From assembly GCF_003334355.1 (NCBI RefSeq), contig NZ_QOWP01000004.1: 64,000 bases of DNA; one strand, 5' to 3'. Position 1 is the stretch's first letter. Each line of letters begins with the position of its first letter. This document shows positions 14,116 to 14,312 of the stretch, one piece after another. This DNA comes from Escherichia coli (GTDB taxonomy: Bacteria > Pseudomonadota > Gammaproteobacteria > Enterobacterales > Enterobacteriaceae). The notes below the pieces were generated by a model that saw only the letters and a program-made list of their open reading frames with translations, was not told the origin of the DNA and ran no database searches. The translations under genes were made by a program, and so were the position numbers.

Positions 14116-14138
14116 AAAAAACCCCGCCGGTGGCGGGG
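14116..14138 (-). terminator. Intrinsic terminator of fliC transcript (minus strand ccccgccaccggcgggg followed by T6)
   Basis: GC hairpin with U-run on minus strand about 175 nt past the fliC stop. Confidence 0.65.
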
Positions 14139-14170
14139 AAGCACGTTGCTGACAAATTACCATTCATGTT

Positions 14171-14270
14171 GCCGGATGCGGCGTAAACGCCTTATCCGGC
14201 CTACAAAAATCTGCAAATTCAATAAATTGCAATTCACCTTGTAGGCCTGATAAGCGCAGCGCATCAGGCA
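14171..14270. repeat. Two REP (repetitive extragenic palindrome) units in the fliC 3'UTR
   Basis: gccggatgcggcgtaaacgccttatccggcctaca and tgtaggcctgataagcgcagcgcatcaggca match REP consensus. Confidence 0.8.
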
Positions 14271-14312
14271 ATTTGGCGTTGCCGTCAGTCTCAGTTAATC
14301 AGGTTAGGACGA

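Follow-up and report, generated by a model that had tools for sequence, protein, structure and literature searches.

FliX belongs to a group of four sRNAs described in Escherichia coli K-12 that depend on sigma28, derive from UTRs, and bind Hfq (Melamed et al. 2023, eLife 12:RP87151, PMC10578931). Northern blots resolve an RNA of ~200 nt and a shorter form of ~100 nt, FliX-S, which carries “one of the REP sequences,” and both are gone in a fliA deletion; FliX also co-immunoprecipitates with Hfq and forms RIL-seq chimeras (PMC10578931). Its depletion by a 5'-phosphate-dependent exonuclease indicates that FliX is processed from the fliC mRNA rather than being a primary transcript (PMC10578931). 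The sRNA has its pairing sites within the fliC, rplC, rpsS, and rpsQ coding sequences and represses rplC, rpsS-rplV, and rpsQ fusions, and footprinting on rpsS showed that a 3-nt seed mutation abolishes binding and that a compensatory mutation restores it (PMC10578931). Overexpression of FliX results in less flagellin, less fliC mRNA, fewer flagella, and lower flagellar promoter activity, while the chromosomal 3-nt seed mutant fliX-M1 has more flagella and more fliC mRNA, an effect opposite to overexpression and milder; the phenotypes of this mutant are modest, with motility and promoter fusions unchanged (PMC10578931). The distribution of FliX is confined to the Enterobacteriaceae (2026 RNA paper).

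The other three members of the group, FlgO (from the flgL 3'UTR), MotR (from the motA 5'UTR), and UhpU (from the uhpT 3'UTR), resemble FliX in being sigma28-dependent, Hfq-bound, and derived from UTRs of the flagellar regulon, with a strong terminator stem-loop at the 3' end, and differ from it in their loci and seeds. The effect of MotR on flagella is opposite to that of FliX, and a REP sequence has been described for FliX alone among the four (PMC10578931).

The window analyzed here is a stretch of 64,000 nucleotides of E. coli DNA (contig NZ_QOWP01000004.1). An earlier note on this DNA had proposed that the long, REP-containing 3'UTR of fliC is a source of a minus-strand sRNA of 100–200 nt, adding that an sRNA derived from this UTR had been reported in E. 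coli. The reported RNA is FliX (PMC10578931), and the proposal itself is borne out by orthology to K-12 together with the published northern blots: positions 14309–14116 of the minus strand very probably encode FliX, with the functional steps carried over from K-12. The feature is already known under this name and is not new. The northern blot that the note had named as a check has been published for K-12, where it yields RNAs of ~200 and ~100 nt (PMC10578931). The features of the locus are as follows.

16108–16134, minus strand: sigma28-type promoter of fliC, TAAAGGTT-N11-GACGATAA, read from the sequence, with transcription starting near 16100.
14313–16031, minus strand: fliC (flagellin, 572 aa), as given by the ORF list and by RefSeq for the identical gene of ATCC 8739; its mRNA would be the parent of FliX.
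14116–14309, minus strand: FliX ortholog, full-length, 194 nt, placed by alignment to K-12, with the 5' end 3 nt past the stop codon and the 3' end at the U tract.
14116–14220, minus strand: FliX-S ortholog, 105 nt, placed by primer mapping; the shorter, more active processed form, holding REP2, seed, and terminator.
14241–14270, minus strand: REP1 palindrome TGCCTGATGCGCTGCGCTTATCAGGCCTAC, from the inverted-repeat search; multicopy, the promoter-proximal half of the BIME.
14205–14240, minus strand: AU-rich linker between the REPs, containing the FliX-S 5' end (14220).
14170–14204, minus strand: REP2 palindrome GTAGGCCGGATAAGGCGTTTACGCCGCATCCGGCA, oriented opposite to REP1 (I1 and I3 of the inverted-repeat search), with a sub-threshold naRNA4 match.
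14139–14169, minus strand: spacer between REP2 and the terminator, carrying the seed GUCAGCAACGUGC.
14116–14138, minus strand: intrinsic terminator common to fliC and FliX, from the terminator scan; presumed Hfq-binding 3' end.

The surroundings of the sRNA are those of the K-12 locus. The gene order fliD / fliC-fliX-fliA is common to the window and K-12, with fliA (13993–13274) downstream of fliC and fliD (16297–17703) upstream and divergent, and the flanks of the UTR (the fliC 3' end and the fliA promoter region) are near-identical to K-12, with a single substitution that lies downstream of the terminator. Over a 231-bp query across the fliC 3'UTR, the window and E. coli ATCC 8739 agree at 100%; for the latter, RefSeq names the identical flagellin gene FliC/FljB family flagellin and gives the order fliD, FliC/FljB flagellin, fliA, fliZ, with fliA intact. 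The parent fliC, which ends in a TAA stop codon at 14315–14313, is a different H-type allele from that of K-12 (572 aa here; another record assigns the K-12 fliC to the H48 family). The established sigma28 consensus is TAAAGTTT-N11-GCCGATAA. The fliC promoter of the window and the 69-nt leader from 16100 to the ATG agree letter for letter with the K-12 sequence, taken from the fliC(-70) gBlock (PMC10578931). Within the UTR, the ORF list holds only short frames of 22–39 aa, which cross the REPs on either strand and which we treat as chance occurrences.

On the other side of the terminator, the ~20 nt that follow it directly are variable among the 11 long- and short-form strains that were compared, and the remainder of window 13994–14115, from a GTAACCCCCAAATAACCCC motif (~14093) to the fliA start, is invariant in 11 of 11. 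Such conservation is unusually strict for a stretch beside a highly polymorphic neighbor, and fliA promoters are expected there.

The assignment to FliX is carried by the comparison with the annotated gene. In the RefSeq record of K-12 MG1655, the ncRNA fliX (b4827) occupies 2001912–2002106 (195 nt) directly 3' of fliC, and window 14309–14116 aligns with it end to end, with 186 of 195 positions matching, eight substitutions, and one deleted T. The boundaries of FliX and FliX-S and the seed were placed on the window from the oligonucleotide and gBlock table of the K-12 study (PMC10578931). Cloning primer SM044 (TTGTAACCTGATTAACTGAGACTG) falls at 14309–14286 with 2 mismatches and sets the FliX 5' end, and primer SM673 (GAATTTGCACATTTTTGTAGGCCGG) falls at 14220–14196 with 1 mismatch and sets the FliX-S 5' end in the linker. 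These 5' ends predict RNAs of 194 and 105 nt, in line with the published bands of ~200 and ~100 nt. The allele is orthologous to K-12 fliX, its anatomy is conserved, and its seed, terminator, and promoter are intact. The two share their locus, ~95% full-length identity, two REPs, seed, terminator hairpin, and sigma28 fliC promoter; they differ by the eight substitutions, four of which cluster just 5' of the seed, and by a U tract of U6 rather than U7, and the RNA of the window is a predicted one. The position in the fliC 3'UTR, the homology over the full length, the intact seed, the terminator with its U tail, and the rpsS target together would place the window RNA in the FliX family.

The geometry of the UTR also agrees with what the earlier note had described. 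From the fliC stop codon, the order is 42 nt of unique sequence, REP1, a 36-nt linker, REP2, a 31-nt spacer, and the terminator; the distance from stop to hairpin, which had been given as about 175 nt, measures 174 nt (14312–14139), and the terminator at 14116–14138 was recovered by the scan. Its hairpin, CCCCGCCACCGGCGGGG at 14138–14122, closes a 3-nt loop with seven pairs, all of them GC, and is followed by TTTTTT at 14121–14116. There are 3 terminator-like sites in the 3.5-kb region compared to a shuffle expectation of 3.7, so that no excess is seen; what lets us take the terminator at 14138–14116 as genuine is its orthology to the fliX 3' end as annotated in K-12, not the count. The tract of 6 U's, against 7 in K-12, recurs in O157:H7 and ABU 83972, which likewise have T6. 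The predicted folding energies are −70.9 kcal/mol (z = −3.7) for FliX and −43.1 kcal/mol (z = −4.6) for FliX-S, and the window and K-12 alleles have the same predicted architecture: in full-length FliX both REPs join in one long hairpin, and in FliX-S the prediction shows the REP2 hairpin and the terminator with an open spacer between them.

The seed GUCAGCAACGUGC (as RNA, GTCAGCAACGTGC) at 14153–14141 is identical to K-12 and includes, at 14149–14147, the GCA triplet, which reads CGU in the K-12 M1 mutant (from comparison of the FliX-S and FliX-S-M1 gBlocks). The spacer segment AATTTGTCAGCAACGTGCTT is likewise the K-12 sequence, and four substitutions stand immediately 5' of it, where AUAAAGCGCAAUUUG of K-12 is replaced at four positions by AUGAAUGGUAAUUUG in the window (14158–14166); the same variant is found in ABU 83972 and Ec387. 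With rpsS +243..+262 the seed is predicted to form a duplex of −19.8 kcal/mol, a value matched or bettered by only 1.2% of shuffled seeds, and for the M1 version of the seed the prediction weakens to −13.6 kcal/mol. Both the predicted duplex and its weakening by M1 agree with the published footprint and compensatory-mutation result. The target is close to invariant, with an rpsS identity of 99% or more in 5424 of 5426 E. coli genomes, as counted over the species. With the four substitutions of the window, the rpsS duplex is predicted to lose an extension of 3 bp (−23.3 to −19.8 kcal/mol), and these seed-adjacent changes and the U6 tract in place of U7 are the differences from K-12 that could matter. 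The same procedure neither confirmed nor located the published autoregulatory site: for FliX-fliC pairing over fliC −69..+220, the best predicted value of −16.8 kcal/mol is equalled by 23% of shuffled seeds.

We also considered whether processing to FliX-S exposes the seed, whose 5' half (UUGUCAG) has a predicted pairing partner in the full-length RNA, CUGACGG at nt 22–28. Mean seed accessibility is nevertheless similar for both forms (0.55 vs. 0.50), and natural variants break the UUGUCAG/CUGACGG pairing without compensation (CUGAAGG in Ec387, GCCAG in ABU 83972); the idea was rejected as unsupported. ABU 83972 itself carries a naturally occurring U-to-C change in the seed, GCCAGCAACGUGC (GCCAGC), together with a terminator-loop variant, CCAACGG. 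Across the species, a 47-nt query covering seed and terminator finds a megablast match, which requires a 28-nt exact word, in 2629 long-form genomes (those that carry the whole 3'UTR), leaving ~870 long-form genomes without a match, and from these non-matches it follows that seed alleles may differ between lineages.

Transferred from K-12 to the window, the mechanism would proceed as follows. RNA polymerase with sigma28 (FliA) would transcribe fliC from the promoter at 16134–16108 and stop at the hairpin at 14138–14116. The fliC mRNA would then be cut to release a 3' fragment of ~194 nt that starts 3 nt past the stop codon, namely FliX, and a second cut in the AU-rich linker between the REPs would give the ~105-nt FliX-S. 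Both would retain the terminator hairpin and U tail and bind Hfq, and the seed GUCAGCAACGUGC between REP2 and the terminator would pair within the rpsS, rplC, rpsQ, and fliC coding sequences and lower their expression, probably by directing cleavage of the mRNAs. FliX would in this way act as a brake, late in flagellar assembly, on the production of flagellin and flagella. We infer in addition, as a plausible role for the repeats, that the REP hairpins are structural barriers that help the fragments persist.

The repeats themselves call for an alternative to be weighed. That the UTR contains two REP palindromes, as the earlier note had stated, is confirmed by the inverted-repeat search (14270–14241 and 14204–14170) and by repeat copies found genome-wide. 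They are GC-rich imperfect palindromes, multicopy, and arranged as an inverted pair around a linker, and they belong to the REP/BIME elements; the arms of 16 nt are 94% complementary. The subtype of the pair may be BIME-1, with Y and Z1 REPs and an L linker. The 30-nt REP2 pattern has 1 match in the window against 0 expected (0 in 100 shuffles), and the central part of the 3'UTR query, comprising REP and linker, is scattered over a median of 28 sites per E. coli genome, while the seed, the terminator, and the fliA promoter piece are single-copy sequence. In an Rfam search in E-value mode over 13000–17000, only two matches were found, both below the gathering score: REP2 to naRNA4 (RF02564; 41.9 bits vs. 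a gathering score of 59.5, E = 3e-5), where it corresponds to the first hairpin of the model, and the linker, on the plus strand at 14207–14248, to ES036 (RF02751; 34.7 bits vs. 37.6, E = 2e-4). These are presumably REP/BIME-derived families, and the matches describe the repeats and not the sRNA. The likeness of the locus to the known REP/BIME RNAs is accordingly one of a shared multicopy element, and it differs from them in that both matches are sub-threshold and the FliX seed and terminator are unique.

One could therefore read the UTR as a passive BIME between fliC and its terminator that shields the mRNA 3' end from 3'-to-5' exonucleases, the fragments then being non-regulatory decay intermediates. 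The dispersed nature of REP and linker and the two sub-threshold repeat families, the sole Rfam matches, are in keeping with this, as is the lack of the whole insert in ~35% of E. coli strains, and REP-mediated mRNA stabilization is established for other operons. We nonetheless consider this reading improbable, as it sits poorly with a seed that lies in unique, non-REP sequence and is identical to K-12 within this allele class, with the Hfq binding and RIL-seq chimeras of the K-12 RNA, and with the loss of rpsS binding upon a 3-nt seed mutation and its return with the compensatory mutation. The protective role and the sRNA role are in any case mutually compatible.

For FliX as an sRNA gene, the distribution over the species turns out to be far from uniform. 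The terminator and fliA promoter piece is present in 5380 of 5426 complete E. coli genomes, and the terminator is conserved in long- and short-form strains alike. The whole 3'UTR (at least 80% coverage) is found in 3503 of the 5426. In the short form, the terminator lies ~17–22 nt past the fliC stop codon, with no REPs and no seed (the body at window 14139–14312 is absent), such that the long form differs by an insert of ~155 nt, holding the REP pair and the seed, between stop and terminator. Queries across the junction of three short forms returned 862 genomes (including a strain labelled O103), 801 (the O25b:H4-ST131 type), and 228 (a third type); long form and short forms together come to roughly 5380. 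The junction query from strain MP1 was uninformative for counts, BLAST having joined the flanks across the insert in long-form genomes. By these alignments, about 35% of the 5,426 complete E. coli genomes are naturally without FliX and about 65% have it; O25b:H4-ST131 is among the FliX-less, as are strains labelled O103 and O8:H8. FliX is, on this genomic evidence, dispensable, since about a third of E. coli strains are without it. It is about as likely as not that FliX is an accessory module that varies from strain to strain and has no fixed place in the flagellar circuit of E. coli. We found no mention of the long/short polymorphism in the FliX papers.

The short forms bear on a further alternative, in which the element acts at the DNA level as a BIME-1-type site, bound by IHF or gyrase, and insulates the fliA promoter region from fliC with its very strong transcription. 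The element does sit between two flagellar transcription units, and its inverted REPs flank an AU-rich linker that we assume to resemble the IHF-binding L motif of BIME-1 (RIB/RIP) elements; in the window this takes the form of the sub-threshold ES036 match and the inverted repeats. Short-form strains, however, have no BIME and yet retain both the terminator and an identical fliA promoter region, which argues that the BIME is not needed to insulate fliA from fliC, and an insulating site leaves the conserved seed unexplained. We regard this role as highly improbable, and FliX remains the preferred reading of the locus.

Several observations made during these comparisons concern individual records. 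In the short-form strain HS-02, the annotation gives fliC as a frameshifted pseudogene, and the strain is missing 7 nt just downstream of the terminator relative to WCHEC000837. The final 44 nt of the short-form fliC query also occur in a FliC/FljB family flagellin gene on a 115-kb plasmid of strain BS74R-D (NZ_CP063337.1, 26530–26573), and a few further matches to the fliC-fliA region are also plasmid-borne. Among GTDB species representatives, the 24-mer TTGYCAGCAACGTGCTTCCCCGCC from seed to terminator has a single exact match, in a Collinsella MAG, and the E. coli representative is also without a match; the latter either has a short or variant form or is absent from the collection. As the scan returns exact matches alone and passes over even the E. 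coli representative, it carries little weight for other genera. The matching contig (JAIJJM010000281.1, “Collinsella sp.,” 3920 bp) is 96–97% identical to window 14013–14582 and 15501–17892, i.e., to fliA-fliX-fliC-fliD DNA. We rejected it as a true FliX outside E. coli, the contig being almost certainly misbinned E. coli DNA.

The RefSeq annotation of ATCC 8739 contains no ncRNA in the fliC-fliA interval (3019–3337, equivalent to window 14312–13994), and the FliX family is absent from Rfam 15; automated pipelines therefore miss FliX. For the window, the main value of the present result is thus the annotation of an experimentally characterized sRNA gene. FliX is a “decelerator” of flagellar synthesis that ties flagellin production to ribosomal-protein expression (the S10 operon), and since the allele is intact, this circuit is probably present in the strain of the window. 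The polymorphism may be worth more than the identification of FliX itself. Natural FliX-minus strains, including ST131, are ready-made backgrounds in which the importance of FliX can be gauged, and if the polymorphism tracks the horizontally exchanged fliC (H-type) cassette, a swap of the flagellin antigen would at the same time turn on or off a brake that acts post-transcriptionally on flagella and ribosomal proteins.
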